The notes beneath the pieces are model-generated. The model had not been told where the DNA came from, made no database searches, and was given only the letters and a program-made list of their open reading frames with translations. The translations under genes were made by a program, and so were the position numbers. From the NCBI GenBank assembly GCA_016906335.1, contig JADEYG010000014.1:1-17798 (forward strand): a stretch of DNA of 17,798 bases, written 5' to 3'. Of the stretch, positions 1 to 17,798 are shown piece by piece. The stretch's first letter is position 1, and every line of letters begins with the position of its first letter. The DNA comes from Novakomyces olei. Lineage: Eukaryota.

Positions 1-147
1 CCTAACTAACACTAACAACTAACCCTAACTAACCCTAACTAACCTAACTAACCTAACCCTAACCCCTAACTAACCCTAACCTAACAACCTGACTAACCCT
101 AACCCTAACTAACCCCTAACCCTGACTAACCCCTAACTAACCCTGAC
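1..147. repeat. Terminal telomeric repeat tract (C-rich strand), heterogeneous units CCCTAA, CCCTAACTAA and CCCTGACTAA
   Basis: The window begins with a tandem mix of CCCTAA (TTAGGG), CCCTAACTAA (TTAGTTAGGG) and CCCTGACTAA (TTAGTCAGGG). The tract ends at ...CCCTGAC, about 147. Confidence 0.95.
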
Positions 148-300
148 ACAATCTTCTTTCAATTACTCTCCTTTTTCAACCTTTTTTTGCCAAAATCTAC
201 ATAAATCTATTCCCATTTTCTACTTCTATTTCCCATCTCAACTCCAACTCTCTCCATCCTTTTCTTTATCCAACAATCTCAACAAATTTCTCTACTCCAC

Positions 301-392
301 TCCCTGATAAACAACCTAACCCTAATAAAACAACTTCCTCATACATTATAATACCACATACATTATCCAATAATTACCCCTAACCCTAACTG
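301..392. repeat. Short interstitial telomere-like relics
   Basis: ACCTAACCCTAA at ~314-325 and CCCCTAACCCTAACT at ~377-391, each followed within ~15 nt by the first CATACATTA minisatellite units. Confidence 0.6.
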
Positions 393-1236
393 AACAAATC
401 TCATACATTATGCCCCCATACATTAATGCCCATACATTAATTTACCATACATTATTCCTCTATACATTATTCATCCATACATTATTCATCCATACATTAT
501 TCCTCCATACATTAATGCCCATACATTAATTTACCATACATTATTCCTCTATACATTATTCATCCATACATTATTTCATCCATACATTATTCCTCCATAC
601 ATTATTCCTCCATACATTATTCTACCATACATTATTCTACCATATATTATAATACCATACATTATAATGCCATATATTATTATACCATACATTATAATGC
701 CATATATTATTCTACCATACATTATTATACATACATTACTTTACATACATTATTCTCCATACATTATTCTACCATATATTATTATACATACATTACTTTA
801 CAATACATTATTTTACTATATATTATTATACCACACATTATTATACATACATTATTCCTCCATACATTATTCCTCCATACATTATTATACATACATTACT
901 TTACAATACATTATTATACCATACATTATTATACATACATTATTCACTTTACAATACATTATTTTACCATATATTATTATACCACACATTATTATACATA
1001 CATTATTCCTCCCATACATTATTCCTCCATACATTATTATACATACTTACTTTACAATAACTTTACAATACATTATTCTACCATATATTATTAATACCAT
1101 ACATTATTATACCATACATTATTATACATACATTATTCCTATACATTAAATTACCATACATTATTATACTATACATTATTATACATACATTGCTTTACAA
1201 TAAATTATTCTACTATACATTATTATAATGCCACAT
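338..1236. repeat. Telomere-adjacent minisatellite, core CCATACATTATT (~12-15 nt units)
   Basis: Dozens of tandem (C)CATACATTATT+NNN units. There is an ~89-nt higher-order duplication (421-509 vs 510-599), and the + strand is almost free of G. Confidence 0.95.
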
Positions 1237-1451
1237 AAAATGCATCCTGCGCCGTCATGAGCTTTTTATAAATCTTTAAACCCATATATCTCCATAATTA
1301 CTAATCCAATCTTGTAAACAAGTATATATTTACACTCCTACTGCACCCCTCTATCCAACCATACACTTTTTGTAAAAACACTTGTTCATTCGACGTTTTG
1401 TCACCTCTACACATGGACTACACACTCTTAATTTTTCTTATTTTTCTGACG

Positions 1452-2493
1452 TTTTTCTTATTATACTTTATTACTATGGGCTCTCTCTATAATATTTTTA
1501 TTATATTATCAGATAGCTATAATATGTGTAGACATCTTGTATAATAATTATATTTTATAAATTCAGGCAACCCTACCCTCGCCGCAATATGGTTTGCCAA
1601 TGTTTTGGAATTAAGGCGGAAACTATTTTTGCTCTTACGTCGTTCTTACCCCGTTTATGCCAATTTCCTTAGCATTCCGCGCAATTTCCCATATTATAAT
1701 TTGGAATTTAGTCGGAAAATTCTCCCTAAAAAACCCTGCCTCCCACGTTTCTCCTACCATTCTTATTAGAATTACGCCATAATTCGCGGGAATGCTAAGG
1801 AAATTGGCATGACCCCCCCTCATACATTAATTATTTTTCGAAATGGAATTATGGCGTAAAGGAAAAGCGAAAACCCTGACTAGAATTATCATAATAAGAA
1901 TCGCATTACATAAAAATGGAATTTCGCCATAATTCCGTCTTGAATATATCTAGTTTTTCTTATTATACTCTATTACTATGGTGGCTCTCTCCATAATAAC
2001 TATATTATATTATCAGATAACTACTATGTGCCATGTGCGATGCAATAATATATTATTTATAATATACCTTACCCTACCCCAAGCAATGGCTGTGATGAAT
2101 TTATCAAAAATCCACAGCCTATCAATATTTCGTCGATATGTCAGCTTGCGCTACTGTATTATCCAATAGCATCGCTGTATTCAGCGATATTTCGTCGAAA
2201 TGTCGCAACTTTTTTAGGGGAAACTTTTCGCCAGTTTAATATATGGCAATCCACTAGCGCCTTGCGACATTTCGCCGAAATATCAGTGATAGGGTTTTCT
2301 CGAATTTAGACATAATGCCAATTATTATACAAAAAAAATAATACCAGCTGACATTTCGTCGAAATGTCGCTAGTAATAATAGCTAGGCGTAATGCGCGCT
2401 GGAATATGTACGTCTTGTATAATAATTATAATTTATAAGTTCAGCAACCCTACCCTCGCTGCAATATGGATTGCCAATGATTTGGAATTAGGG
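1452..2493 (+). repeat. Subtelomeric composite repeat cluster 1 (modules C-A-B-C-D-B end-C)
   Basis: Module C (AT-rich ...TATCAGATARCTA...ACCCTACCC) at 1452-1616, 1954-2090 and 2413-2493. Module A has a 22-bp inverted repeat (1657-1678/1789-1810) and module B a 12-bp one (1845-1856/1925-1936). Module D is four GACATTTCGnCGAAATGTC-type palindromes at 2124-2368. Homologous copies occur at 6852-7346, 10329-10785 and, inverted, at 16288-16680. Confidence 0.85.
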
Positions 2494-2582
2494 TCCTCCA
2501 TACATTAATCCTCCATTATTAATCCTCATACAATAATCTTCATACAATAATACTCCATACAATAATCCTCCATACATTATTG
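2494..2582. repeat. Second short CCATACA(T/A)TAAT minisatellite
   Basis: About six tandem units such as CCTCCATACATTAAT and CCTCATACAATAAT, the same core as the 338-1236 array. Confidence 0.85.
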
Positions 2583-2830
2583 CATAACTTGCGCATTACT
2601 TATAAAATTGCTCTCCATACTATAGTTTATAGTTGAATAAATTCGTGATGCCACACTCGACATATAATAGGTTTCAATTCATAAATTTTCCATTATATCT
2701 ATGATCCTGCATACGTTGAATCACATATTATACAATAAATGAAGATAATTAGATCCAACAAACTACTTTTGTTCCGCCATTTTGGTTGGCCTGTCATTGC
2801 TGAAATACCAATGCACGAACTTTACACCCG

Positions 2831-5800
2831 CTATTTGTGTGGGACCGATTGTGATTTGACCGGCCCACAATAAGCATGCTGTGCCTTTGGCCGGTAAAGC
2901 TTCACCGTCCAGGTTTTTAGTTTGTCTTTCATTTCTAATTTTTCGTGTGCTAATTCAAATATAGTAAATAACGATGGCATGATCTTGTCTGAATATTGAC
3001 ATTGCCGTTCCTCTTTCTCCAAATGCCGTCCGACATATTGTTTGAGGTAGGTAGCACCGATAGCAAACGCTCCCAGATTTTATCCAATTTCGCTGATTTG
3101 CTTTCAATACTGTTCTTTTGGCGTCCAAGTACAAAAACTTTATCCTGTTCCGGCATTGGCCAAAGCCGTGTGAGTACTGACTAGCACCGGAAAGGAGACA
3201 CAAAACACATTTGTCTGAAAGATAAAGCATTAAATTGTGAATATCTTCAGCAATTATGATGTTCGACCGATCTCTCTGTAACACGGCTTGTCGACCATAT
3301 CGGCAATCGGGCTGCCTCTCGTTTGCTTCAGCCGGACCTTGCGGCGCTCGACATCTGACATAAGTCACAATGATTCTCGTCCGTCTGACATCGCGCTAAG
3401 TCTTCATCATAGTCGTTGAAATATCTGTCTAGTACTAATCTCCTGCACTCTGTTCATGTACATATCTTCTCAATGGTTTCTCCATTGTGCTTAGATCATC
3501 CTCACTAAATATGATTAGGCTCTCGGCTCTTCTGCCATCTCTTCCAGCACGTCCTGATTCTTGGAAATAGTCCTACCAAACTGTAAGGCGCTTTGGCATG
3601 CACAACCAGTCTCACATGTTGGAAATCAACACCAGTTCCAATAGCAGTCGTTCCAATAATACTTTGCTTTTCTCACCTAATATCCACCGATTTATTATTC
3701 CAGCCTTCTCAGCAAAGCTAAGCTTTGATGTTATGCAATGCGCACGACTAGCAATAGCAATTGTTTCGGCGTCTGACTTTGTTCTTGCGATACACATTAC
3801 GCGATCATCTTCATCTTTGAATTCAAATTGTTTCAGAGTATTTATTACTTCGGACTGTAGTGCTTTCCAGTAGCTTTGCCTCGCTTTGTAAACAATGTTG
3901 TGTCTACGACATCGTACTTTAAAACCCAAGTCGGATTCTCTAGCACAAAATGGTCTATAAATTCGCTCCTTTTGCACGGAGGAAGCGTTGCCGACAAGAG
4001 CACTATTGGTACATCCAATAGTCTTAAACTAGGTATTTGTTGAATTGCCTTCTGTATGACGTAAATGCCAAATGGCATTCATCGACTACCAATCGATCAA
4101 GAATTCCTCTTTGGCGTAAAAGTGTTAAATATTGCCGTCCCGAGTCCGACACAGCTGTCTCCACCGACATCAAGGTTAAGCGATAAAACTTTTTGCGGCG
4201 AAATCATTTCGGCGGTCCATATTCCAGTGTCGATCCCCACTAGTTTGGACCCGACGTTCCTACATCAATCATCAACGCACAATGGTAAAACCATTCACTG
4301 TGCATGAAGCTTGCCGGCAAGCAAGCTGCAACCTGGATTACACATGTCTTCCAAACCCATGGAAAATACAATAACTATTTCCTGTACCTTTCGGGACTGC
4401 TACAATAGCTCCGCCTGTATTGCAGCACGGAATTCAAAATCAGAACCAACAGCCTTTTGCTTTTCTAAACATTCTTTTTCAGTTGACCAATGGGAGACTT
4501 CCAAAAATTTCTGGTACTGCTTTAGTATTTTCCGATCTTGTCCGTAGCATGAATATTTGTTAGACATTTTGGAAGAAATCCGCCCCATGATGACACGCTT
4601 CCAACTAGGTTGACCAAAGATCAGCGTATTCTTCAAACCGCTACTGTTTCCGTACATTGTACTGGTGTGTTGCGACACTGTGATCGATAGGGACTTTAGT
4701 ATCCGTAAGGTTGTCCTCAACGTCTGCGATGTGTTTTGAGAATTTGACATTTATTATGGACGAAGCAATCTCCGCCAGGCAGATATTGACAACGTTGGAA
4801 AAAACACTTGCATGTGCGCAAGACGCTCCGAATACCCGAGAAGGCACTTACCGCTTTTTCCCATGTACACCAAATAAATGGTTTGAGATAGTGCGTTCCC
4901 GAGGACACCCTGTAGTATTCATAAACGGTTGAATATAAATCAAATAATTCAGAACCAAGTTTCCCCACCGTGAGTTAACCCGTCAAGGGTGGGGCGGCCC
5001 AGTAATGTTTTGTGTTTTAGTATAGGTTGTAATACTAGCATCTGTCAACTTTAATAAATATATTTCGCCCTCTCCTTCCATTCTGAAACCATAAGTTATG
5101 GGTTTCCGGTACCGCGCAATGGGGCGCTGATATTGTTAATTAGTGTCCATATCCATCCGCAAAAATGGTTTGTACCGCAGCCAAATACCGGAATGGGCTG
5201 ATTTGTCCCAGTCTCCCCTGTTCCGTTATGAAAATAAGTTGTTAGAGTGTTTTGATTGCAATAGAGAACGAGCCCGTTTTCATGTTCTTTTAAATAAATA
5301 ATGTTTGTTTTCAGCTGCCTTATCCCAAACCAGTAGCCAGGGCTGTGAAATATGGAATAAATCCGAGAGATTTTGTCGGAAAGAAATTTGTGTTGATTCC
5401 AAACAAAAGACTGGTCGCTTAAAATTCCGTAGGGCGCCAAAACTGCGCGTTTGTATAAAATTGTGATTTCGGCCATTCGCTAGAGAACTTCCTCTGTAAG
5501 AGAAACTCTCTCTCTGCAATAATCCCAGGTACATTGGTGCGGATTAACATAATATTTTGTATACTGAAAATAGATAAGCTCCCAATTAAAGAAGAATCCA
5601 ACCGCAAGTACTTTGATGGGTTGAGAAACTGCCTCAACTAAAATGTCCAAGTTTGAACTAGCCTCTCCCGGCTGCGAGCAAGCCTCTTCAAACAAAGTTA
5701 ATTGAGCGCAGTAAATCAATCCAGATATATCGTATTAATCCATTAGGCGGTTTCCAGCTTTTGAAGCATCTCCTTATTATAATAACACATGATGCCACAA

Positions 5801-6853
5801 AAAGCTTAAGAGTGCAGAATCCAAATGTTGTTTTTAATTGGTTGTTTTAAAAGATATAAACCAATATAAAAAAGAAACCGCGCGCAGTATCAAATAGACC
5901 AGTTTGATTGCAAGTACAGTCCCCTCGGCATTAGCCCTTTGAGCGTTCGTCACAGTTAACATCAAGTCGAGTAATGAAAAATCGAATTGCCTGAGCCCGT
6001 ACGAAAAATATCTTTTCTTAGTCGCAGGTAAAGTTGTTCGTCGAAAGTGGCGCACTCGTCCAGAATTGTCCGGCACAAAACTACTCAGTCTAGTCGCCAT
6101 AGCTGAAGTCATTTTCATATTGCTTTCATCAAATATATTGTTATATAAAAGCTCGATTTGTTCATCAATACTGTCAAGCACTGTGGATTCGAAATTGCTC
6201 AGGTTTTCCGTTTGTAAACAGACTCGATCAAACCCAAACTTCGTGACCCACGGTGGAATGTCTCTTTGATCGACATCACTTTCTGTTGCAGCACTGGGAA
6301 GGGTTATAAGGGTCTTTTCCAAGAACTTTCCTACAACGCCCTCCGCGGCTGAATTTGAGCTTGGTTTTAAACCATCTTTCGCAGCAACACGAAAATATTT
6401 CAGAAATTGATTCTCTGTAAAACAAGTTTGTAGGGGTGAACAAACAATATGATCTTTTGATGTTCGAACAGTATGTTCTTTTGAGATATGCTGCTCAATG
6501 ACCTTTCGCGATGATTGAAGCGCATATAGAAAAACTGCAGTAGTAGCCTTGGCAAACCTTAGAAATAATAACGGTTCAACCATTCACCGCAGGGCTCGGC
6601 GGCCTCCAATATTATTCAAAACAGGAGCGATATTCCACGTCGTTTGCCATTAATTACAGAAAGTCCAATTTGAAGTTCAGTACCTTAGCTTATCGCCTGA
6701 CGCAAATGCCTTTCGGCTGCCGTTGGTTCCAACCTCGGACCTTTACCATGCCCGACAGCCTTGCAAGCAACTACCTTTAAACCAAAGGCCTCTCGATTCC
6801 CAAGTACTCATGACTGAGATATCTGTTCAAGTCTTAATTACTACTAGAAACAT
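2831..6853 (-). pseudogene. TLH1: Telomere-linked RecQ-family helicase (TLH-type): OrsD/DUF3505-like Zn region + tyrosine-recombinase-like region + RecQ core + Cys-rich C-terminus; many frameshifts
   Basis: Frame-stitched minus-strand motifs: Walker A-like MGxGKT (~4340-4365, needs a 1-nt indel), LVVDECH (DECH at 4072-4083), LLSATLPP, GTGVDFQHVRLVVH and DYFQESGRAGRDG (3534-3572). Downstream are an RQC-type CRR...C...CDLC and a C-terminal CVLC..H..C / CYRCYLPQTIC / CQYSD, with stop at 2831. The N-terminus has QHISKEH...PLQTCF...YFRV...IPPW, typical of TLH proteins. The gene is transcribed toward the telomere and the start is approximate. Confidence 0.9.
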
Positions 6854-7346
6854 GCTGTAATCTATTTTCGATATAATGCGAATTATTATTAATAGTGTGA
6901 ATGTTCCCCTTTCCGTCGTCGCGATTTTTACCATATTTAACTGGAATTAATGCAGTAAATCTAACCCTCAAAACCCGTTTGACTATTTGTTATCCAATTC
7001 TTATTAGAATTAGCCGTAATTCGCGACGACGAGCAGCAAATTCACATGACCCCCCTCCCATACATTATTAATTTTCAAACTGGAATACGCCGTAATTTTA
7101 CGTAGAACACCCTAACAAAAATATAGCTAATAAAAACTACGATACATTATTTCGAATTACCGGCGTAATTCCGCGCAGAATATGTATAGGAAATGGCATG
7201 ACCCCCCCCCTCATACATAATTATCTTTTCGAAATGGAATTATGGCGTAAAGGAAAAAGCAAAAACCCTGACTAGAATTATACATAAAATAAGAATCACA
7301 TTACATAAAAATGGAATTTCGCCATAATTCCGGTTGAATTATCTAG
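6852..7346 (+). repeat. Subtelomeric composite repeat cluster 2 (modules A-B-B), directly upstream of the TLH gene
   Basis: 7190-7346 is nearly identical to 1800-1953. Module A has IR CGTCGTCGCGA/TCGCGACGACG (6914-6924/7021-7031). ATGCTGTAATC..TTTCGAT at 6852 matches 10436. Confidence 0.85.
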
Positions 7347-7891
7347 AGCCCATTGCCAGAGCAAAAGGAAACAGTACGAATTGGTCGTCGACCATGAACC
7401 TGCCGGGACATTTACAAACGTCCACATTGACCCTGTGGCGTACGGCAGTGTTATATTGGGATATCAGGAACGAAGGTAGTGCTGATGTGGCCTCCTACAG
7501 AAGTGAATCTAAGAACTTACAGGAATATCATCGTCTACTCCAGGGTCGGGTCATACCAAGACACCTCCCTACGTTAAAGCCTCCATTACAGTTGTTTGAG
7601 GAAAGGGATTTAGTTGAATATGGAACCGGGAACGCTTCACGCGGTTATCGCTGGTCTCGGACGTCGTTACTTGGATACAACTATGCCCGCGAAGGACTGT
7701 GAATGCCTTCAGCGAGTGGTCGATGGGCAAGGCCCAAGAAAGAGACCAGGGATCAAAAGCGCGGTGATACAGGCACCGGTATGGTGGGATTTTTACAGAG
7801 AGGTCTACGGGATCGGACCTACCAGGGACAGCGAAAAGAGGTGTTGTCGGGACTTACTCTCTTGGAGGGAGTAATGTCAGGGGTTGCTTAG
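7347..7891 (+). pseudogene. JmjC-domain (Fe(II)/2-oxoglutarate dioxygenase) coding segment at the 3' end of the LTR element; frameshifted
   Basis: Stitched across frames: PAGTFTNVHIDPVAYGSVILG-ISGTKVVLMWPPTEVNLRTY...MEPGTLHAVIA..RTSLLGYNYA. HxD is at 7423-7431, K at 7473-7475 and the distal H at 7638-7640. The last frame (ORF 7703-7891) stops inside the LTR. Confidence 0.8.
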
Positions 7892-8248
7892 AAAGGTGCT
7901 GGGAGCACTTGAATAAGCAACTCGTAGTTTAGTTAGTTAGTTTATTTAGTTGTATGTAGGAAGTTGCTTAGAGTAGCGCTTGGAGCGCAGACTCTAGCAC
8001 TTCTGCAATAAGTTAGTTACTTTAATAGTTTCGTAGAGTGGGATCTTCGGCACAGTAACGAGCCGAGCCCAAGTATAAGAAGAGGAGTTCTTTCTACTGG
8101 GTTCGGGGCGTTACAACAACCAAGGTTCCGCTTAATATAAAGTGTCTTGAGATTAGTTCTTCTATCTGCCTATCCTTTGCTACTCCCTGTCAAGCAACGT
8201 GTGACTTGGCCGACTTAAGATTACTTTGTATTGAGTCACCCCCTAACA
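7875..8248 (+). repeat. 3' LTR (374 bp) of the JmjC-carrying element
   Basis: TG...CA ends with imperfect terminal inverted repeat TGTCAGGGG/CCCCTAACA, an internal TATAAG at ~8074 and a PPT directly upstream. Confidence 0.8.
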
Positions 8249-8489
8249 TAGAGCTTATCAGCCCAGGAAAATCAACCTGCGCGAAAAAAGAAAACGTCAT
8301 CAGAGCAACTAGGAGACGAAAAATTCAGAAAAATAGACCCGCCTGCAGGAAATCCTTCTGGTGAAAGAAAATAAATCTTGAAGGGATCTCCAAAGAAAAA
8401 TTGAAGAAAATCCTTTCCCCCCTTTCCTTAAAAATGGGTCAAAGGAAAATATTAAACAGACCCAAAGGAGGCGTTAATCACATTGAAGT

Positions 8490-10000
8490 CCTGACATTGA
8501 GCCTCAAAATACAATGAAGCCATCACTGGGCCATTTGGGAATCAGTGGAAAGAAGCAATAAATAAAGAACTAAAAGCAATGGAAAGAAATGAAGTATGGA
8601 AAGTCGTTTCCCAATCACAAAATATACGTACAGTTGGATGCGATGGGTGGTTTAAACTGAAACAAGGAGAACAGTCGAATGAAATAATTAGAAAAGCAAG
8701 ACTAGTAGCACAAGGGTACTCACAGATTTTTGAAAAGACTATGGAAGATACATTACGCCCCAGTCGCTCGTCCTGAACAGCATTACCGGTTGGTTTTAGC
8801 TTACAGCGTAATTAAAAATTATGAAATCTATCAAATCGACGTGGATACAGCCTTCCTATATGTACACTAAAGGAGTCAGTGTACATGAAAAAACCCGATG
8901 GGAGTGAAATTAAAAAAACCCGGCCTTGTTCCTAAAATTAAACAAAAGTCTCTATGGTCTCAAACAGGCACCAAGATCGTGAACAGTGACTGGATTCTAC
9001 ATTGACAAAATACGGTCTAACAAATCAAACCAAAGATTCTGCCATATATTACAATGACTCTTAATTATTGCTGTCACGGTAGATGACCTCATGATCGTCG
9101 AAAAAAAGGAAGAGACTTGAATTTGAATCCTTTTTAAAATTTTTACTCCATCAAGTCACTTGGAAAAATAAAAGAGATATCTTGGTATGGACATTACATA
9201 TGACCGCGACAAAGGAATACTCCAAATTGTCACAGTCACAATTTGCTAAGTCAATTATACGCACTTACGGAGACCACTAACCTAAAATACATAAGTCAGC
9301 CCATCACAAACATCAATTCACTCTATCATCCCGCGGATGAAAATTATGATTGTCTGAAATCTATCCAACTATTATAGGAAAATTAATAAATTGACTGAAT
9401 GGACAAGACCAGACCTCAGATTTCAATAAGTATGTTAAGCAAACATACAAAAAGACAAAATGAAGAACAAATACAGGCCTTAAAACACACCATGAGAATC
9501 TAAAGCTACACTGGACACTGATCACCTACATAGAGAAAATGCAGATACACTCGTGGGGCGACTCTGATTTCGCCGGAGACACTTGCGACAGAAAATCCGA
9601 TCAGGGAATACGTTGTCTCACTAGGAAAAAAACGGCCCAATAGCCTGGAAACTCGGCAAAAGCAAAAAATTGTAAACCAGTACAATGATGGCGGATTCGA
9701 AGCTATGAAACTAACAGTCAATCAAGCCTTGTACTACAAATATCTAATGACGAAATTAATAAAGGGCCCGAAACATCCCAACGTCTACTCATAGACAACG
9801 CTGCATATACTTCAATAATGGTGGAAACTACCAGGTTCAAAACATCTAAGTAACACCTGCTACTATGTGATGGATATTGTGAGAAATGGACTGGTAAGCA
9901 TACAGAGATGCCCCTCACGAAACATGAGGCAGATGGATTGACCAAGAACCTACTTGGAAACAAATTCACTAAATTTACAAAATGCTATACAATGAAGAAT
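8490..10000 (+). pseudogene. pol: Ty1/copia pol fragment (reverse transcriptase + RNase H), frameshifted
   Basis: Motifs across frames: QWKEAINKELKAMERNEVW, KARLVAQGYSQ, YQIDVDTAFL, KSLYGLKQAPR, VDDL, YLGMDI, WTRPDL, DSDFAGD, PIAW..KQK. Boundaries are approximate. Confidence 0.9.
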
Positions 10001-10055
10001 ACAAAAAAAAAATAAATACAAGAATACAAAAAGGAAATAAAAGATTCAAGGGGAG

Positions 10056-10328
10056 TGTTGAAATATGAATCTATTATCCCCTTATAATAATAATAATAAT
10101 AATAATTAATAATATATACACTCGCCGACTCACTGACCGGCTAAGACAACTCAACCATGAGTGTCAGTTGTTTGACTTTTAGCTTTACAGAATACTCACT
10201 CAAAATACATAGTTACATATATATAGCTCAAGCGAACCCTCACACCCTCGGGGATTCAGCTGAAGCAATCTAGAGTATCTAATTCATAATCTACCATAAG
10301 AGCAAATTCCAACCTTCTATATTCAACA
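10056..10328 (+). repeat. 3' LTR (273 bp) of the copia element
   Basis: TGTTGAA...TTCAACA terminal inverted repeat directly after the PPT, with an internal (TAA)n run and TATATATA. Confidence 0.9.
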
Positions 10329-10785
10329 TATTATATTATCAGATAACTATAATATGTGTAGCACATCTTGTATAATAAATATATTATATAAATACAACAA
10401 ACCCTACCCTTGCCGCCATTCTCTGCCCTGACATTATGCTGTAATCCTGGTTTCGATCTGACGCTCTTTTTATAGCCTCCAGCCTCCACTGTGAATTACC
10501 TTAACATACCCGCGCTTTTCCCATACATTAACGGCGCATTAGCCAGTAAAATCCGTCCCTGAAACCCCTCCTACAATTTCTACTGCATTTCTTATTTACA
10601 TTACGCCGTAATTCGCGCGTATGTTAAGGTAATTAGCATGAACCCCCCCCTCATACATTAATTTATTTTTGGACCGCATTACGCCGCAAAATCAAACCGA
10701 AAACCCTGTCCAATTTTCAATGCTATAATAATCACATAACAAAATTATTGATTTTGCGGCGTAATGCGCGCTGGAATATGTATAA
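10329..10785 (+). repeat. Subtelomeric composite repeat cluster 3 (modules C-A-B)
   Basis: 10329-10418 matches 1499-1590. It has a 16-bp IR (10494-10509/10619-10634) and a 21-bp IR (10675-10695/10748-10768), and ends GCGTAATGCGCGCTGGAATATGTA as at 2387-2410. Confidence 0.85.
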
Positions 10786-11036
10786 GTAATATCAACCGTT
10801 CGAACTTCAACATAACTTCAATTAATTCAACAAAGATTATTATATAGGACCGTTCGAACAATATATCCAACATCAATAATTTTAACACAAAAGCTTAGTT
10901 TTATAATATTTTTTTATTTTAGAATGTTAGGGTTTATACAGATCAAAAGACGTACGCGTAGTGCGGTCATGTTAAATGCCGTAAACGAAAGCCAGACGTG
11001 GCTAATGTTGACCGTGCTGGTGAAGCAAAATTGAAA

Positions 11037-12103
11037 ATGATTGATAATGAGGAAATCGATGAAATGCGTTGAATTCCTCGTCCGCAGTTAATGATAAGTT
11101 TTCACGTCAGCGCCTTCAGGACTGCGTTTGAGCATGGATCCCGCTTGAAACGCCGGTGACCGTTGCATCCAGTCTGGAGTTAAGATATGCAATATACCAT
11201 CTGCGTTTATTCAGCGCAGTCATTATGCAAATTGCGGCTTATCTTGAGTTGTCGTCGCATCTATCATACAAAACAAAGGTGTTCTCGAGTTCAATGGAAC
11301 CCGTTGCCTACCGAATGATCCCATTCAGGTGGGGAAATAGTTGTATATAGTTGATGGTAAGTCGCAGATGAGAGGATGTTTAGACTGACTGTTTAGAAGA
11401 TGCAGAAGAACTGAGACCGCAAGAGGGACCCGAATCAAAAAGCAAAGCAAGGCCTTTTCGAAATTTACATCTTGATGAGCTTACGTCGACGTACAGCAAG
11501 TCTTCACGGAGCTCATACGGACAGGTAGGGGAGGAAGAAATTTTCTTTGGTACTCACATGAACTAGAATCGTTCAGGGGAGCGTTTGGATGATGAGAGAT
11601 GGCGGCTGTCTAGTGTTTGGTGAGTTTGGAGAAGACAGATGTGAGGCCTGCCATATTATTCCCAAATCGCGCGGAAATTATGTATGTTTGACCGGAAACC
11701 TAAGTTTTTAGAGTTGTTGCTTACCTGTCTCAGCTTTTGCACGGAATCCTTGAGCTAGCATAGCTGACGCTTTCGATATCATTTCTGTGCAGAACGGACT
11801 GTTTCTTTCCTATGAACTGCACAAATACTTCGACAAGTATATGTTGGTATTATTGTCCGGTAAGACAGTATACTGGAGATTAGAGTACTTAAAATTACCA
11901 GGAACAGAGGTTTTCGAAATTCATTGTTTGTGCCGAAGGACAATTTGTTGGACTATCACGGAAAGCAGCTTCTACTAAATCCGAGGTTTAAAAAATACTG
12001 GCCCCGTAAAGAGTTTCTTGACTGGCATTACCGTCAATGCGTGATGGCCAGACTTCGAAGACATTCTTCATTCATGAGCGCCAGAACAGGCATGATTTCA
12101 TGA
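11037..12103 (+). pseudogene. HNH endonuclease (HNH_2 / Crinkler-type HNH family), intron-containing, disrupted
   Basis: Stitched protein: ...MRDGGCLVFG...CEACHIIPKSRG...SVQNGLFLSYELHKYFDKY...DYHGKQL...WPRKEFLDWHYRQCVMARLR. GT-AG introns at 11357-11396, 11525-11566, 11682-11733 and 11860-11901. The start is uncertain (possibly near 10924), and there are several indels and stops. Confidence 0.8.
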
Positions 12104-12231
12104 GCCCGAGACGCGTACAATTTATCCGTCTGTAAACCATGGACAATGTATATCGATTATTTTGAGAAATTAAGAGCCAAAATTTTGATTATCGAGGTGA
12201 TCCGATCCAGCAATTATAAAAATGATAGCTG

Positions 12232-12990
12232 TCATCTTTTTATTGGCCTGGCTACGGACATATATGTCAACATATGAAGTTTTGACACATCTGGAGCGAT
12301 ATGGTCAGAACGAATGCCTATTTCACTAGTCAATTCTACTAATTGCTCTTGAATCAGTCCAATGTCCATAGGACATATGGGCCTAGCACTGGTTCGAAAT
12401 TCAGCCAGTGGGCCGTCCGCAAGATCAGAATATGAAGGTCAACCATGAATCGTACGTGAGTTTGATTCTTTCTGCCCAACCAATCACGCTTAAATCGGCG
12501 ATCTTGTCAAATATATTTCACCCTTTAGCAATACGACATCAAAATATATTGCTGTAATAATTTGCAATCAACCTTGTCTCCAAGATTTTAGAGCCCATGG
12601 CTGGCCTTAGTCTCATAAATGGCTCTTTCTTTCGGATCTGTGCATGCACACAATAGTCCGCAACTAAAATTGTTTGGAATAGCTAGGCTTTGCATGGAAA
12701 TCTCAAGAAAGCGAGGTCAATACCGCATGGAGAGCAAGTCAGAGTTCATACCGCCAGATGCATATGAACTCTCAGGGAAAGTGCGGTATCCCTTTTAAGG
12801 TAAAATTAGTACCATAAAGTTGTGCGCAATTTGTCTGTCCGGCTCTGATTTTTAGTGTTCTTTCGGGATACCCTGGGTCTCTTGAGAATTCAATAATCCA
12901 AATTTACGTCCATTAGCGCCATTTATATATGTCTTCAATCCAGGATTGGCCTCTTTCTGTCTATATTTAAGTTCGAGACAACTGAAGCCT
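12232..12990 (-). other. Possible degraded or spliced coding sequence of unknown function
   Basis: Short protein-like minus-strand open stretches (e.g. FDKIADLSVIGWAERIKLT; DLADGPLAEFRTSARPICPMDIGLIQEQLVELTSEIG...PIKR*). No family recognised. Confidence 0.25.
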
Positions 12991-15230
12991 CAATATTTGA
13001 ACAATGATAACTATTCTTGCGATAGGAAAAAAATTTATTCGCAAATCCCCACAACGGGAGAGACGCGGTCATATCTAACCCTGTAAACATTTATTTCACA
13101 CAGGAACTTTTCTGTTACGATGCGCCGGAAAATATGCCACTACACATTTGTCACTTCGAAGGAGATTGTCAAACTTGATCGCAGAACCCGGTCAAATGTC
13201 GCCATTGTGGTTAAACAAATCAACAAAGCTATGAGCCAATTGCCGCCGAAAACCTTAACCAAGACCTAGGTACAATAGTATATGCCATTAACGTGTTCTC
13301 GTTACGTTCTTTGAAGGATACATCCATGGTCACGACAGAAAGGTTCTATGCGAAATTCTAAATATCTTGCAATGCATTACCAAATGCTCACGGGACAAAA
13401 AGATGCAGTCTCGTTAAGTTTTCGCTTTTTGATCTCTCCTTCGGACGAGCGCAAGGCTCAAACCTTCGGTACAATGTGTTGAGCGTGTAGTCTTATTTGA
13501 CCAGTGATCACTCGGTCCGTAAACGACCACCGGTCAAGTCATACCACCAAAATCGCCATGCTACGGCTTATCAGCTCTAGGCTACTGACAATTAAAGCGT
13601 GAGCCACGATATACAAGTTACGATTATCGGCTCTTCCCTGTTGCGCAAATAAACGGAGGCTTTTCATTTGGAATCTAGATTTCTAGACCTCACCGCCATT
13701 AACGGTATGGCTTGTATCTGATCCTGTCGTTTGCTTGCTCCTGTAAGCCATCGTCCAGATCAATATAGATCCAGGCCAAAACTATTTTTGCCCCATAAAG
13801 GTATTAAGGCTGGGTTTGGTTAAAAATCAAAAAGCCGTGCACATAGCGTCACACAGGCATCTCTCCCCATATCATGGATCGAGGATCCACAAGACATAAC
13901 TGTTCTTACCTAGCCCATTGCTAGGCAAAAGAGAGTTGTGATGAAAACAGTACAGAACACGCTATATTTTCTGCAGCAGATACTTAGAGCATATACCATC
14001 GGTATCAGAAAAAAAACGACAGCACCAACTTTCCAAAGAACGGAGCTTCCTTGAAACTTGGCAAAGACATACCAGGCGTTCCGAAAGTCATTTTGTACTT
14101 CGGGAAATCGCTATCAATATCTCGCACAAGAAAGGTTGGGAACGCGCATCAGCAAGAACGCAGGAATTTATTTAGTCAATCTATTTCCACCTCTTTTAAT
14201 GGTCTAGCTCTCACCTTCTAAATAGTATTCTGGTGCACTGCCCGGGCCGATTGCCCACGGGACCAAAAGGCATCCGAATATTGGCGAGGACCATTCGAAG
14301 ATCAATTGCCAATCATTAACAGGTAATGGTATTGATGATGGATTGTTCCGTGGCTGCCAAAAACCACTGCAAATTGCATTTGAGCTCAGTATAGAGTCGT
14401 CCTCAGCCAAAGGCATAAGAACAGCCAATGGCATTCCCAAGCGCCCGAGTAACTTCTCCAAAGGCAATTGACGGCGGTAGGGACACCTTTAAAACTCCAC
14501 ATACATTCTGTTGGGCTCGCTTAATCCGGCACAAACTTTTTTTAAAGCTGGAGCTTTTATCGAAAATAGCCCACGAAAGAGAGACGACGTCAAGAGCTCG
14601 ACAACAACTGGTCTTTGGGCCAGTAATTCCAGTTATCTTGATTTCAAACCTCCTCTGCTGGCACGGCGACATACATACGTCATACGCCGGCACCGCAATC
14701 AAATGACTCCCCAGCAAATTCGGAACTCAAAAAATGAGGATGTCTAAAAGACTTGCACGTCATGGGCATTGCACGTCATGGCAGCGGCGCACCCAATTTG
14801 TCGGAGCGCACTATCAATACAAGGAGTCAATTATCATGGACATGGCTGAATTAATCTTGAGACAAACTTTATTTTTCTCCCACTTCGGTGTACCGCGATT
14901 TCCCCTGAATCCATGCTCAATTGAGGTCTTAAATTGTTGCGAATTTTTGTCTATATGCTGCTCTTAGGGATACATCCAGTATGTAGAAATATAGAATGCA
15001 AAGTTTAAAGAGTAGCTCGTTAGAATTCAGAAGAATCTGGTTTGTGTACAGTTTTTCCTGGAATCTGCATGTCCTCCAAAGCTACCAGCCGACAGCATTA
15101 ACTCATAGTACGGCACAATTTGTTGTCATTGTCTCGATATGGCTAACAAAGTTCATATTGAAGACGGGGCTCTGAGCATTATAATTCTCCTACAGAGCAC
15201 TGGCTGCGCTTTTTGGATATCAAATGCTCA

Positions 15231-16077
15231 TCATACCATGGATACTGCAAAACCTCTAAATCTCGTCAATACACATTGTGTGTAATGCCAGCGTAGAAGA
15301 GGAGGGTAAGGCTTATCACGGTCGCGAACTAAATCTATGAACATGATCTCCTTTCCGTGATATTCAGATACATCATCTAGAAATGAATGAACATAATATC
15401 GTCCATTCTCAACCCAGATACCAAAGACATATCGATCGAAAGCTTTATGCAATGAAGAACTGAGGGTCAGCCCGTTTCTCAACGCTGTACAAACCAACAC
15501 GACCCTGAGTAAGCTCAAATAAAAAGTTTTGGCCAAGGCTGTAGGGAATGATATGGCACGCTTCATTATAGTTTATATTTCTTTGGCCGCTGACCATACA
15601 GCGACCAAAATCGCGTATGAAGCATTCGAGACGAAATTGTGTTTGTCTTTGCGAGCTCCTCGAAGAACTACTTACGGTCGACAAACTATCAGTAACTGGG
15701 AGCGTTCGCATTCGCGATTTGCTCTGAGGTCCTGGTCAAAAGTTAATCTCGTAAGATGCAGGCTCGGCTAATATATACGTGGTCGGTAAAATTTCCGCAT
15801 CTGACTCGCATGATCCTTCATCGCAACATAACTTGATCGTCTCAGGTGCGTTCGTAATGGACGCAACGATAACTTCATAGAGATACTGAACCTTTTTCAC
15901 ACTGGCAAGTTTGGCACTAGCACAGAACTCAAAAGGCAGCTGAATAATCAGCTTGTTGTCGGAATTAACAATTTTGATGGTAAGGATGCTAGCCCAACTC
16001 TCCACAGAGGTTTTGTAAGTAGTCTCGTACAGCGGTTCACAAGACATTGTAGATTTAGTGCTCCAGCAGTCAATCAA
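15231..16077 (-). pseudogene. HNH endonuclease paralogue, intronless, two 1-nt frameshifts (possibly an intact CDS)
   Basis: ORFs 15736-16077, 15445-15711 and 15231-15566 join into ...QFRLECFIRDFGRCMVSG...EACHIIPYSLG...YSVE-NGLTLSSSLHKAFDRY...EYHGKEI...PYPPLLRWHYTQCVLTRFRG. The likely ATG is at ~16047. Confidence 0.85.
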
Positions 16078-16287
16078 GACCCCCAGTTAAGCTGACAGCG
16101 GTCGAACTGACATGGGCAAGGGATCAATTATTCAATTGTATAGGCTGGAGGCGTTATTGAAAATCATTACCAGGTTTTTCTCTACTGGAAATATAACCTG
16201 CTTCGTTTCTGACGATTTGAAGACGGAATGAGTGACGAGGTGATGTCGCAGGAAGTGTTTAGCAATCTTTCAAATTGAAAGACACGG

Positions 16288-16680
16288 CTATCTATTATTG
16301 CTAGCGACATTTTGATGTATGTCAAGACTGAGAAAACCCTTATCACTGATATTTTGGCAAAATGTCAGAGCGCGCTAGTAGATTACCCATATATTAAACA
16401 GCAAAAAAAATCACTTTCGCAGCAATATCAATGAAGGAGACATTCTATTGGATAAAACGGCAGGGCTAGCTGACATTTCGCAGCAATATTGATAGGTTGA
16501 GGATGTTTTATGAATACATATAGATTTCATTCATTGCCTTTAGGGCGAGGGTATATATTTTATAAAGATCATATTGCAAAGTGCATTTGCATATTTTATA
16601 TTTATTTGATAATAATATACTATAGATATAGCCTACCTGAATAAATATCCGTCTTGACTTAAGTCCAGGAATATGTATAG
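16288..16680 (-). repeat. Diverged inverted copy of modules C+D, with a B-type terminus on the + strand
   Basis: The reverse complement aligns with ~1983-2386 (CCTATCAATATT, TATCCAATAG, GTTTAATATATGG, AAATATCAGTGATA(A)GGGTTTTCTC, AAATGTCGCTAGYAATAATAGMTAG). The right end GGAATATGTATAG is at 16668-16680. Confidence 0.8.
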
Positions 16681-16716
16681 AATAAATGTAGTCGCCGGCC
16701 GCATACACGACCGTTG

Positions 16717-17798
16717 ATGGAGCATGATGCTTACTATGAATTTGGGCCTATTTTGGACGTGACAGAATACAATACAGTATTGAGCGTCTTTGGTATTTGG
16801 CTGAGATTGAAGATTTTACTTATTCTGTTTTTAGGTCTATCTGTTGTAGTCTTTGGACTGGCTTCAAAATTCGTGAAGCATCGTCTTTTTATCAATGAGC
16901 CCCGTAAGCCAAATCTTTAGAAAAACCCGTAATAATTTGTGCAGTCATTTATTTCCTTGTTGGGATCGCGCTTGGTCCGGAAGGCGCCAATTTCATTCGG
17001 CCATCATCGTGGGGCCCTGTTGACCAGATTACTCATGTAATATAAACGACTTTTTGGTTTAATATCGGTGATCTCTCTGACATTGAAGGGATTGGCCCGT
17101 CTGGTTCTCGGCATTCAGCTTTTCATCATTGGGATTGATCTACCGGCACAATTTATTTACCGGCAGTGGAAAAGTCTTGCAGTCCTTTTGCTTCGTATGT
17201 TTTATTTAATATTCAAATGCTCACATTTTAGCGTGTATGACGTTGACTTGGATAATTGCGTCAATAATTATCTATCTCTGTTTTAATATACAAAAGTTCG
17301 TAAGTTTTGTTTCATTATTGAAAACGCTATTTACCTTCTTTCTGACTCTACATAGTTACATGCTATGATCATTGGAGCTTGTGTCACCCCAACTGATCCT
17401 GTCTTATCAAACTCAATTGTGACAGGCGAATTTGCGGAAAAAAATGTCCCCTTAATTTTGCGTCATATTGTTGTTACAGAGGCAGGAGCCAATGATGGTA
17501 GGCACTGTACAAGCAGACTGGAAAGCTTACAGTTAGGTTTTGCTTACCCGTTCCTATTTCTTGCTATATACTTGGCAGATTATAGAGATGGACATTCTAC
17601 CGGACTTTGGTTTGTCAATACAGTCATCTACGAGGTTGTATTCTCCGTTGTTTATGGTTTTTGCGTTGGATATCTGTTCAAGCAATTTCTGTATTTTGCA
17701 GCACGACGTGATTTGGTGGACAGAGAATCATTTGTAATTTTCGCAGTTGCAACTTCACTTTCTATCTTGGGAACAGCGGGCATGATAGGAACAGATGA
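16717..17798 (+). CDS. Fungal CPA1-family Na+(K+)/H+ antiporter (Nha1/Sod2-related), 5' part; continues beyond window
   Basis: Intact spliced frame MEHDAYYEFGPILDV...LFINEPLIYFLVGIALGP...GACVTPTDPVLSNSIVTGEFAEKNVPLILRHIVVTEAGANDGFAYPFLFLA...VDRESF...GMIGTD. GT-AG introns at 16793-16834, 16904-16944, 17037-17088, 17195-17231, 17300-17355 and 17498-17536. Confidence 0.95.

Follow-up and report, generated by a model that had tools for sequence, protein, structure and literature searches.

Repeat units with a common 3′ terminus around a telomere-linked helicase gene at a chromosome end of Novakomyces olei

What does it mean that one short, polar motif closes one block of sequence after another at the end of a chromosome? 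This question is raised by a stretch of 17,798 nucleotides from Novakomyces olei (assembly GCA_016906335.1, contig JADEYG010000014.1, positions 1 to 17,798 of the forward strand, called the window below), which is a eukaryotic, fungus-like chromosome end. After the telomere and a minisatellite, repeated material extends over about 10.8 kb, and gene-bearing single-copy DNA is present from about 10.8 kb onward. The repeated part contains modules of two types, A and B, and a block carrying a RecQ-like telomere-linked helicase (TLH) gene. In an initial annotation, the motif was taken to mark repeated one-ended truncation: a telomere-bearing cassette was thought to have been joined by one fixed end to internal breaks or targets, replacing everything distal, in a process possibly driven by the TLH protein. 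The data presented below lead us to favour, tentatively, another answer, namely that the motif is the anchored 3′ end of a family of mobile units, one member of which carries the TLH gene.

The seven motif strings previously listed, ending at 1953, 2386, 2412, 7189, 7346, 10785 and 16680, are all present at these coordinates on the plus strand, and an eighth terminus, which had been overlooked, closes the TLH block at 6847. The motifs were said to face the centromere without exception, which is true of the seven strings but not of the terminus of an inverted B module (minus strand, 16288-16299), which points towards the telomere. The pattern AATATRTMTAR, picked after inspection of the data, gave 4 matches as compared with 0.23 expected, a number reached in none of 200 shuffles, and the other termini were recovered by a scan allowing two mismatches. 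The terminal letters are CTAG in modules A1 and B1, the unit ending at 7346 and the TLH block, ATAG in the unit ending at 7189, module B2 and the tail ending at 16680, and ATAA in module A3. The base after the terminus varies between copies (T, G, G, A, G or C). The strings are not independent motif hits but are homologous to one another, each closing a repeat module on its 3′ side, and the motif is the 3′ terminus of a structured non-coding repeat unit of about 135-155 nt.

Two such units in tandem, of about 135-155 nt each, were found in each A module; they too were absent from the initial annotation. Module A1 (1451..1953, plus strand) is composed of a leader, S1 (1451-1533), the 5′ part of the body (1534-1654), unit1 (1655-1797) and unit2 (1798-1953), and ends with ...GAATATATCTAG. 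The 83-nt leader S1 also has motif-like ends, at 1520-1531 and 10350-10361, and its own end reads TAATATGTGTAG. Module A3 (10329..10790, plus strand) has a leader of 35 nt, cut by the end of a long terminal repeat (LTR), followed by the body, unit1 (10490-10626) and unit2 (10627-10785), ending with ...GAATATGTATAA; the GTAAT making up the 5 nt after 10785 matches the start of another unit. Another A copy hosts the TLH block: its 5′ half (2411..2493, plus strand) is equivalent to A1 1534-1616 (2403-2493 against A1 1521-1616: 87.5% over 96 columns, E 8e-27), and its 3′ half (6848..7189, plus strand) consists of a degenerate unit start, unit1 (6905-7034) and unit2 (7035-7189), ending with ...GAATATGTATAG. 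This is followed by an extra A1-type unit of 157 nt (7190..7346, plus strand), which shows 91% identity to 1798-1953 and ends with ...AATTATCTAG. The similarity between unit1 and unit2 reached z 8.8 in A3 (0/300 shuffles), 5.7 in the copy A2a (0/300) and 3.3 in A1 (2/300), and the ends of the two units are likewise homologous (z 4.9, 7.2 and 3.4). Stems are formed in A1 by 1657-1678/1789-1810 and 1846-1857/1926-1937. Two long-range stems have been kept across the diverged A copies, with compensatory double changes in 10 of the 30 pairs; 88.3% of the stem cells are paired, as compared with 76.5 ± 2.5 in shuffles (reached in 0/500), and slid controls gave only 0-4 pairs. A telomere-like string, CCCTGACTA, also occurs within unit2 of A1 (1875-1883). 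The stretch 6780-6911 was considered as a possible leader-like 5′ part of an A copy and rejected (z 0.5 against A1).

Module B1 (1954..2386, plus strand) has a leader of about 70 nt in common with A1, after which the two diverge, and its body is a long imperfect palindrome: the B profile matched its own reverse complement with E 2e-12. On its 3′ side, a perfect 9-bp palindrome (2351-2369) is followed by 13 nt and then by CTAG (2383-2386), and the fold of this palindrome (z -4.10) was matched by none of 200 shuffles. The B body (2095-2390; 16284-16520) contains 3-4 copies of an element of about 28 nt with the palindrome ATTTCGNCGAAAT, in alternating orientation, an arrangement reminiscent of grouped sites that a dimeric protein might bind. 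True terminal inverted repeats were sought in the modules and rejected, B2 matching at only 7 of 12-14 positions. A search of the window with the A and B profiles yielded no further fragments.

Short-read contigs from three public runs, X1, X2 (same strain) and X3 (other strain), were placed on 1240-17798. They cross the junctions at 2386, 2410, 2493, 6847 and 16680, and none of the contig pieces listed from the three runs crosses those at 7189, 7346 and 10785. Depth across 11.2-17.8 kb is about 4 in X1 and about 1,190 in X2; it is about 3-5 times higher in the helicase region and far higher still in the small modules, but since depth is not copy number, such ratios are usable only as rough multiples ("several-fold", "tens").

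The bounds of the TLH block (2494..6847, plus strand; 4,354 bp) were set by flanks colinear with A1 and A3. It starts with TCCTCCATACATTAAT, which is the minisatellite unit of the telomere-adjacent array (the minisatellite occupies 2494-2576 here) and resembles the C-run plus TCATACATTAAT at the start of every small unit, and it ends with GTCTTAATTACTACTAG. These last 17 nt are identical to the A1 terminus at 12 positions and to the B1 terminus at 10; at least 12 identities with the A1 terminus occur in only 5 of the 35,564 17-mers in the window, one of them being the 17-mer itself, which corresponds to a background rate of 1.4e-4. Once the block is removed, the model of the A site can be aligned with both A1 and A3 in unbroken order through the joint: the 80 nt that adjoin the block on its right align with A3 10436-10474, directly after the end of the left flank (z 3.5, 10/1000), and the 80 nt just within the block show no match (z -1.2 and -0.9). 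Since the flanks are consecutive parts of an A module and the interior of the block is unmatched, the block lies inside a single A copy, both halves of which have been kept. No target-site duplication was found at its edges (G|...|A). What follows it on the right resembles the beginning of a unit, the local match to A1 1820-1852 being non-significant, and the block appears to lie in register at a sub-unit boundary of the A copy. As an X1 contig (4,903 nt, at roughly 5 times single-copy depth) covers 2356-7147 and an X3 contig covers 6006-7147, both of the junctions of the block have been independently assembled. This arrangement would correspond to a two-sided insertion or, with the opposite polarity, to descent of A1 and A3 from a copy in which the block had been lost; under either polarity, the TLH gene is tied to the repeat family.

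The TLH gene itself (2790..6580, minus strand) is read towards the telomere, and its frame is broken by assembly indels. The fact that an X2 contig matches window 2356-4113 with 0 mismatches and 21 one-base gaps means that the window carries indel errors and that apparent pseudogenes are unreliable; the assembly is unpolished, with roughly 1-2% indel errors, and broken reading frames are largely artefacts. The helicase motifs DExH, SAT and QxxGRAGR were identified as VVDECH (about 4072-4089), SATLPP and QESGRAGRDG (about 3534-3563), and the Pfam family RecQ_Zn_bind was matched with E 2.7e-4 and 22.1 bits, below the curated cut-off of 25. No Pfam family was detected in any frame of the N-terminal half. 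The "TLH recombinase domain" invoked in the initial annotation is not borne out by Pfam: apart from the weak RecQ zinc-binding match, neither a recombinase nor a nuclease family was detected in the frames of the gene. Word-based protein searches with two TLH pieces gave no relatives; for the N-terminal open reading frame (ORF; 249 residues), the best Protein Atlas score was 0.76 (bacterial DUF4238 clusters), below the useful level, and the AlphaFold2 model had a mean pLDDT of 36.6 and was unusable. The RecQ-type motifs, the telomere-adjacent position and the multi-copy state (from the rough depth ratio) mark the gene as one of the TLH type, its placement within the family being made by motifs only.

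How do these units meet their neighbours? Truncation junctions had been postulated at 2386, 2412, 7189 and 7346, and two of the four turn out to be natural boundaries between tandem parts. At 7189|7190, one unit ends and the following 157 nt are exactly one unit; at 2410-2412, a unit tail is followed by the start of a body, which mirrors the succession of leader end and body start in A1 and A3. At 2386|2387, the next base does fall in the middle of a sequence, as claimed: the B end meets an A3-type unit tail of about 25 nt (2387..2410, plus strand), 2386-2410 being identical to 10758-10782 at 25/25 positions and base 2386 being the last base of B1 as well. This junction is present with 0 mismatches inside the X2 contig covering 2356-4113. 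The string ending at 16680, by contrast, truncates nothing, being followed by single-copy DNA and an apparently intact gene start (the start codon of an exchanger gene about 36 nt past 16680). We agree that no target-site duplications are visible at the motif junctions.

At 7346|7347, truncated sequence indeed lies to the right, but the name "JmjC ORF" given to it has no support. What lies there looks like an LTR element reduced to its 3′ part (7347..8248, plus strand), in which direct reading shows an ORF-like internal part, a purine tract (7864-7871) and a 3′ LTR (7875-8248, TGT...ACA). The JmjC label is unsupported, no Pfam match having been obtained at E up to 10 with seven reading-frame pieces; the string GTFTNVHIDP in one frame is similar to the HxD region of JmjC, and this is a resemblance and not a test. 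A PDB sequence search gave only E~1. The ORF at 7328-7702 gave no matches in a word-based protein search, and a hidden Markov model search with it of 1.84 billion proteins returned a single match (P0001), a low-complexity tandem-repeat protein, which was dismissed as spurious. The next element is a 5′-truncated copia-type element (8249..10328, plus strand) with an RVT_2 domain at about 8588-9207 (E 1.4e-11) and a 3′ LTR at 10056-10328 (TGTTG...CAACA), in which Pfam detected no gag or integrase. The two are nested, the LTR element lying inside the copia-type element, and the latter interrupts the A3 leader. In X3, the contigs are broken at 8248|8249, and there is a loose end after 10328. Both retroelements (7347-10328) lie in the plus orientation with an intact 3′ LTR and have lost their 5′ parts. 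A single event at 7346|7347 can account for the loss of both 5′ parts, and no trace of either element was found in the 7.3 kb between 7346 and the telomere. More generally, no trace of the other half of the interrupted sequence was found between either the 2386 or the 7346 junction and the telomere, and both junctions are compatible with a one-ended event.

One copy lies well outside the repeated region. Module B2 (16284..16648, minus strand) is inverted in single-copy DNA between two divergent genes, 5.5 kb inside the boundary between repeated and unique sequence, and its 3′ terminus, ...AATAATAGATAG, occupies minus-strand 16288-16299. It is crossed by a single-copy X2 contig (10803-17798), and both of its flanks are present (T|...|C). 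On its 5′ side it is abutted by an A-type 3′ tail of 32 nt (16649..16680, plus strand), which reads CCGTCTTGA...GGAATATGTATAG. In the other strain, an X3 contig carries an A end, the last 37 nt of B and then 124 nt of unrelated sequence. The discrete polar 3′ terminus common to several module types, with differing right-hand neighbours, that the initial annotation had described is upheld in both the window and this X3 contig. The polarity is consistent: 3′ ends are fixed and 5′ sides variable, and the tails of 25, 32 and 37 nt always retain the 3′ end. Every centromere-side end of a run of family members coincides with the 3′ end of a unit within 5 nt (2386, 7346, 10785 with 5 nt more, 16680, and the B terminus in the X3 contig). 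Some contigs also join the A terminus to TLH position 5852 (X2) and to 8072 (X1 and X2).

The unit structure, the common terminus, the two-sided insertion (or the loss of the block), the copy in single-copy DNA and the fixed-3′/variable-5′ polarity are what is observed. With somewhat less than even confidence, we take the family to be mobile DNA of the rolling-circle kind, anchored at its 3′ end, closest to the Helitron2/Helentron HINEs and including a TLH-carrying member; its mobility, its rolling-circle chemistry and its preference for inserting at unit boundaries are what we infer from these observations. On this basis, the units of about 135-155 nt and the 83-nt leader would build head-to-tail subtelomeric modules, A and B, in the same orientation, and the TLH segment would belong to the family by virtue of its ends, given its opening of the CATACATTAAT type, which each small unit also has at its start, its terminal 17-mer and its position in register at an A sub-unit boundary. 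The units would insert, anchored by the 3′ end, beside or into resident copies, in one orientation and without duplication. The one-sided junctions at 2386 and 7346 might then reflect either an insertion whose distal half was subsequently lost or the joining of an element end to a chromosome that had broken, and the resulting mosaic might later have been copied to several chromosome ends by recombination. A more far-reaching version is, in our opinion, unlikely: the TLH segment would be the master copy of an undescribed class of chromosome-end elements that insert without duplication and have a 5′ end of the CATACATTAAT type and a 3′ end of the form GTCTTRA...CTAG, in which a RecQ-type helicase with an N-terminal region of about 600 residues replaces Rep/Pif1. 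The units of about 150 nt and the A and B modules would be its non-autonomous derivatives, 3′-anchored joining, including capture at eroded or broken ends (7346|7347), would rebuild the subtelomeres in one polarity, and TLH/Y′-type helicase genes would be remnants of such elements.

Several points weigh against the mobile-unit reading. A search of the ORFs of the window and of the read-through frames of 1201-10330 gave no Rep/HUH protein, no Pif1-type helicase and no transposase of another kind, and the only helicase present is of the RecQ type and not of the Helitron type. Just 4 of the 8 termini end with CTAG, the others with ATAG or ATAA, and the flanks obey no A|T or T-rich target rule. 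The local 3′ hairpins are insignificant in A1 (z -0.12), A2a (-0.35), the end of the TLH block (+0.39) and the 16680 tail (+1.02), and the subterminal inverted repeat of A1 described below is short and reaches only p~0.012. The compensatory changes could mimic selection on structure, since arm-to-arm conversion can also yield them in inverted repeats. A single locus is compatible with insertion and deletion of the TLH block alike. The contig joints 1951->5852 and 1951->8072, with sides of only 21-25 nt, fall below the 30-nt caution limit and are not firm evidence. Lastly, tandem Helitrons have been reported to have inner copies truncated at the 3′ end, which is the opposite of the 5′ shortening seen here (PMC7492417).

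Against this background, the alternatives have to be weighed on the same junctions. If the repeats were non-mobile telomere-associated sequences, the tandem or segmental arrays would owe their junctions to unequal crossing-over, microhomology joining and break-induced copying between chromosome ends; they would perhaps bind telomere proteins via CCCTA/CCCTGAC cores, and the TLH gene would have been lodged there by an unrelated rearrangement. The tandem unit structure is in keeping with this idea, as are the telomere-like CCCTGACTA in unit2 of A1 and the presence of 2356-7147 in multiple copies and on one contig, and exchange between motif-bearing sub-repeats would explain 7189|7190 and 2410|2411. 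We nevertheless consider it rather unlikely: random array breakpoints would not be expected to place all the centromere-side run ends on unit 3′ ends within 5 nt, nor to leave tails of 25, 32 and 37 nt always holding the 3′ end, and neither the inverted B2 in single-copy DNA, 5.5 kb past the repeat/unique boundary, nor the family terminus on the TLH block fits in with it. Re-capping by a fixed cassette end, as proposed initially, seems distinctly unlikely. It agrees with the abutment of a unit end on a 5′-truncated LTR element at 7346|7347, no part of the two retroelements being left in the telomere-side 7.3 kb, with that of the B end on a 25-nt tail at 2386|2387 and with the terminus shared by the TLH block, and weakly with the contig joins from the A terminus to 5852 and 8072. 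Layered re-capping fails, however, as a general explanation: the TLH block has two sides, and the target is retained on each of them, B2 keeps both its flanks in the opposite orientation, two junctions on the original list are simply places where one unit naturally ends, and Pfam finds no recombinase or nuclease family in any TLH frame. Two-ended insertion that keeps both flanks had been named, along with target-site duplications, as refuting the re-capping model; the TLH block is such a two-ended insertion, without a duplication. In addition, the junctions between 2386 and 7147 are common to all the copies of the multi-copy block and were therefore made once and then copied, rather than being made repeatedly.

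A last alternative, addition of the retroelement type, would have a structured RNA copied into DNA, with a break or the end of a chromosome serving to prime the reverse transcriptase. Priming of this sort occurs in HeT-A/TART and in endonuclease-free Penelope-like elements, and the arrays formed by these and by MoTeR are head-to-tail and polar, with a fixed 3′ end on the centromere side and 5′ truncation. The polarity of the window is similar, with its fixed 3′ ends, variable 5′ sides and very short tails; the orientation would suit priming from the G-strand end, the stems with their compensatory changes are like those of a functional RNA, and the 2-3 nt common to the sides of the contig joints are weakly in favour. 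We nonetheless regard this explanation as very doubtful, because the window contains no reverse transcriptase other than the copia RVT_2, the junctions are all devoid of poly(A), telomere repeats and short tandem tails, and Rfam at E up to 1 detected no hammerhead ribozyme or other family apart from a single microRNA family match at E 0.97, which is a chance level. The TLH block would hardly be expected to be a retro-copy, being antisense and 4.35 kb long and having a promoter side of its own. A tRNA scan of the window yielded none.

It remains to place the putative 3′-anchored units among known systems. In Saccharomyces Y′ elements and fungal TLH families, a telomere-adjacent helicase gene is present in multiple copies among chromosome ends and has long been suspected of descending from a mobile element; Y′ elements have telomere repeats at their borders and owe their spread to recombination, and termini that are defined, non-telomeric and common to short non-coding units are not known to us in these systems. 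Helitron-like 3′ ends, which the initial annotation had mentioned as an alternative, give the best anatomical fit, but no Rep/Hel gene is present in the window. The canonical Helitron (Helitron1) has a Rep (HUH) protein with a Pif1-type helicase, neither of which was found in the window frames 1201-10330. Its termini are 5′-TC and 3′-CTRR: the TLH block starts with TC and the leader with TTTTTC, and CTAG is the 3′ end in 4 of the 8 cases. As regards the Helitron1 hairpin 10-12 nt before the 3′ end, the 9-bp palindrome of B1 lies 13 nt before CTAG, and the hairpins of A1, A2a and the TLH block are insignificant. Helitron1 inserts between A and T without duplication; no duplication is seen here either, but the flanks are G|...|A and T|...|C.

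As in the window, elements that are short and non-coding, are asymmetric at their ends, contain tandem repeats or microsatellites and form composites with several termini have been described for Helentron/Helitron2 HINEs and DINE-1 (PMC4067079) and for FoHeli (PMC5148889). HINEs are said to leave the target unchanged and to have T runs where they meet it and tandem repeats inside; their subterminal inverted repeats are situated at 2-4 nt from the 5′ end and at 38-60 nt from the 3′ end, and a palindrome is found 8-35 nt from the latter (PMC4067079). In A1, a T run occurs at the 5′ boundary, the leader starting with TTTTTC, and of the two arms of a 10-nt subterminal inverted repeat, one occupies element nt 5-14 and the other is 53 nt away from the 3′ end. 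These positions are within the published ranges, with weak significance (60 of 5000 shuffles do as well). No such repeat was seen in B1, and A3 and the TLH-bearing copy lack their 5′ ends. A palindrome in the right position was found in B1, and internal tandem repeats were found in the form of 2-3 tandem units per A module and the 15-bp minisatellite opening the TLH block. On the other hand, the inverted repeat is 10 nt long here as compared with 12-15 nt in HINEs, no consistent T-rich target was observed, and the CTAG/ATAG termini are unlike those published. The copies in the window are 5′-shortened, lie in one orientation at a single chromosome end as far as could be seen, and have no Rep/Hel partner in the window.

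Two systems described in preprints also show points in common with the window. The Helitrons capping the germline chromosomes of Paramecium aurelia have a fixed orientation with the left end distal and the right end proximal, internal satellites and ORF-less derivatives at many chromosome ends, but they are flanked on both sides by telomere repeats and encode Rep/Hel proteins of 9-10 kb, whereas the window junctions lack telomere repeats and no Rep/Hel was seen (10.1101/2025.11.06.686955). The Vv3 Helitron-like element of Botrytis cinerea is enriched in subtelomeres, associated with TLH in multiple copies and equipped with a helicase lacking a recognisable nuclease domain; it is 15.5 kb long, has captured genes and flanks TLH, whereas here the TLH gene is inside a segment bounded by the family, and the likeness is one of description only (10.1101/2022.03.07.483234). 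In the literature available to us, subtelomeric Helitron-like elements and TLH families are described, and we found no TLH segment with defined termini common to short non-coding units; supplementary files were outside the scope, and the degree of likeness to the Botrytis element might be affected by Figures S8 and S10 of that preprint. A metagenome scan with an 18-nt module pattern gave 30 loci, of which 13 showed only chance matches of 19-27 nt to the window and 17 none (BLAST); the source organism is thus absent from these metagenomes.

The remaining features of the window frame this mosaic. The terminal telomere tract (1..150, plus strand) is C-rich on this strand and irregular, with CCCTAA, CTAA and CCCTGACTAA variants (TRF periods 6, 10 and 17); period 10 (AACTAACCCT) is the most frequent, the CCCTGACTAA variants are at 88-137, and long-read errors may have contributed to the irregularity. 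Two interstitial blocks of telomere repeats, at about 314-326 and 378-392, are oriented like the terminal tract, and in each case TCATACATTAT, the start of the minisatellite, lies 10-13 nt further on; stretch 300-420 seems to hold one-time telomere/minisatellite junctions that are now internal. The 15-bp minisatellite of the CATACATTATTCYYC type (402..1227, plus strand), detected by tandem repeat finding, has about 55 units, and the unit type recurs at the start of the TLH block (2494). In the single-copy stretch, Pfam identified a Na+/H+ exchanger gene; between A3 and B2, there are genes with an HNH_2 endonuclease domain (PF13391; E 1e-5 and 5.8e-6) at 11100-12100 (plus strand) and 15000-16090 (minus strand). 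One-base gaps make up almost all the differences between the window and the contigs of the same strain. Longer differences from contigs occur at three places: 61 other letters replace the 25 nt at 4685-4709, and in single-copy DNA the X1 and X2 contigs give 121 and 75 other letters for 111 and 77 window bases at 13100-13212 and 14211-14289, respectively, the latter two differences being probably assembly errors, or else allelic.

Mobile descent has long been suspected for TLH and Y′ genes, and no defined ends have so far been tied to such genes. The complete TLH segment analysed here has a terminal 17-mer and an opening sequence in common with short structured non-coding units, which lie in one orientation beside the telomere. 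The fact that the segment shares its ends with these small units makes the suspicion of mobile descent testable. Polar arrays with fixed 3′ ends and variable 5′ sides at a chromosome end need not imply repeated loss and re-capping either: since most of the junctions studied here are unit boundaries together with one clean insertion, re-capping is not required by such arrays. Even if the family were to be only an ordinary subtelomeric repeat family, it would still serve to illustrate usefully, on a worked case, the way in which mosaics of this kind are put together.

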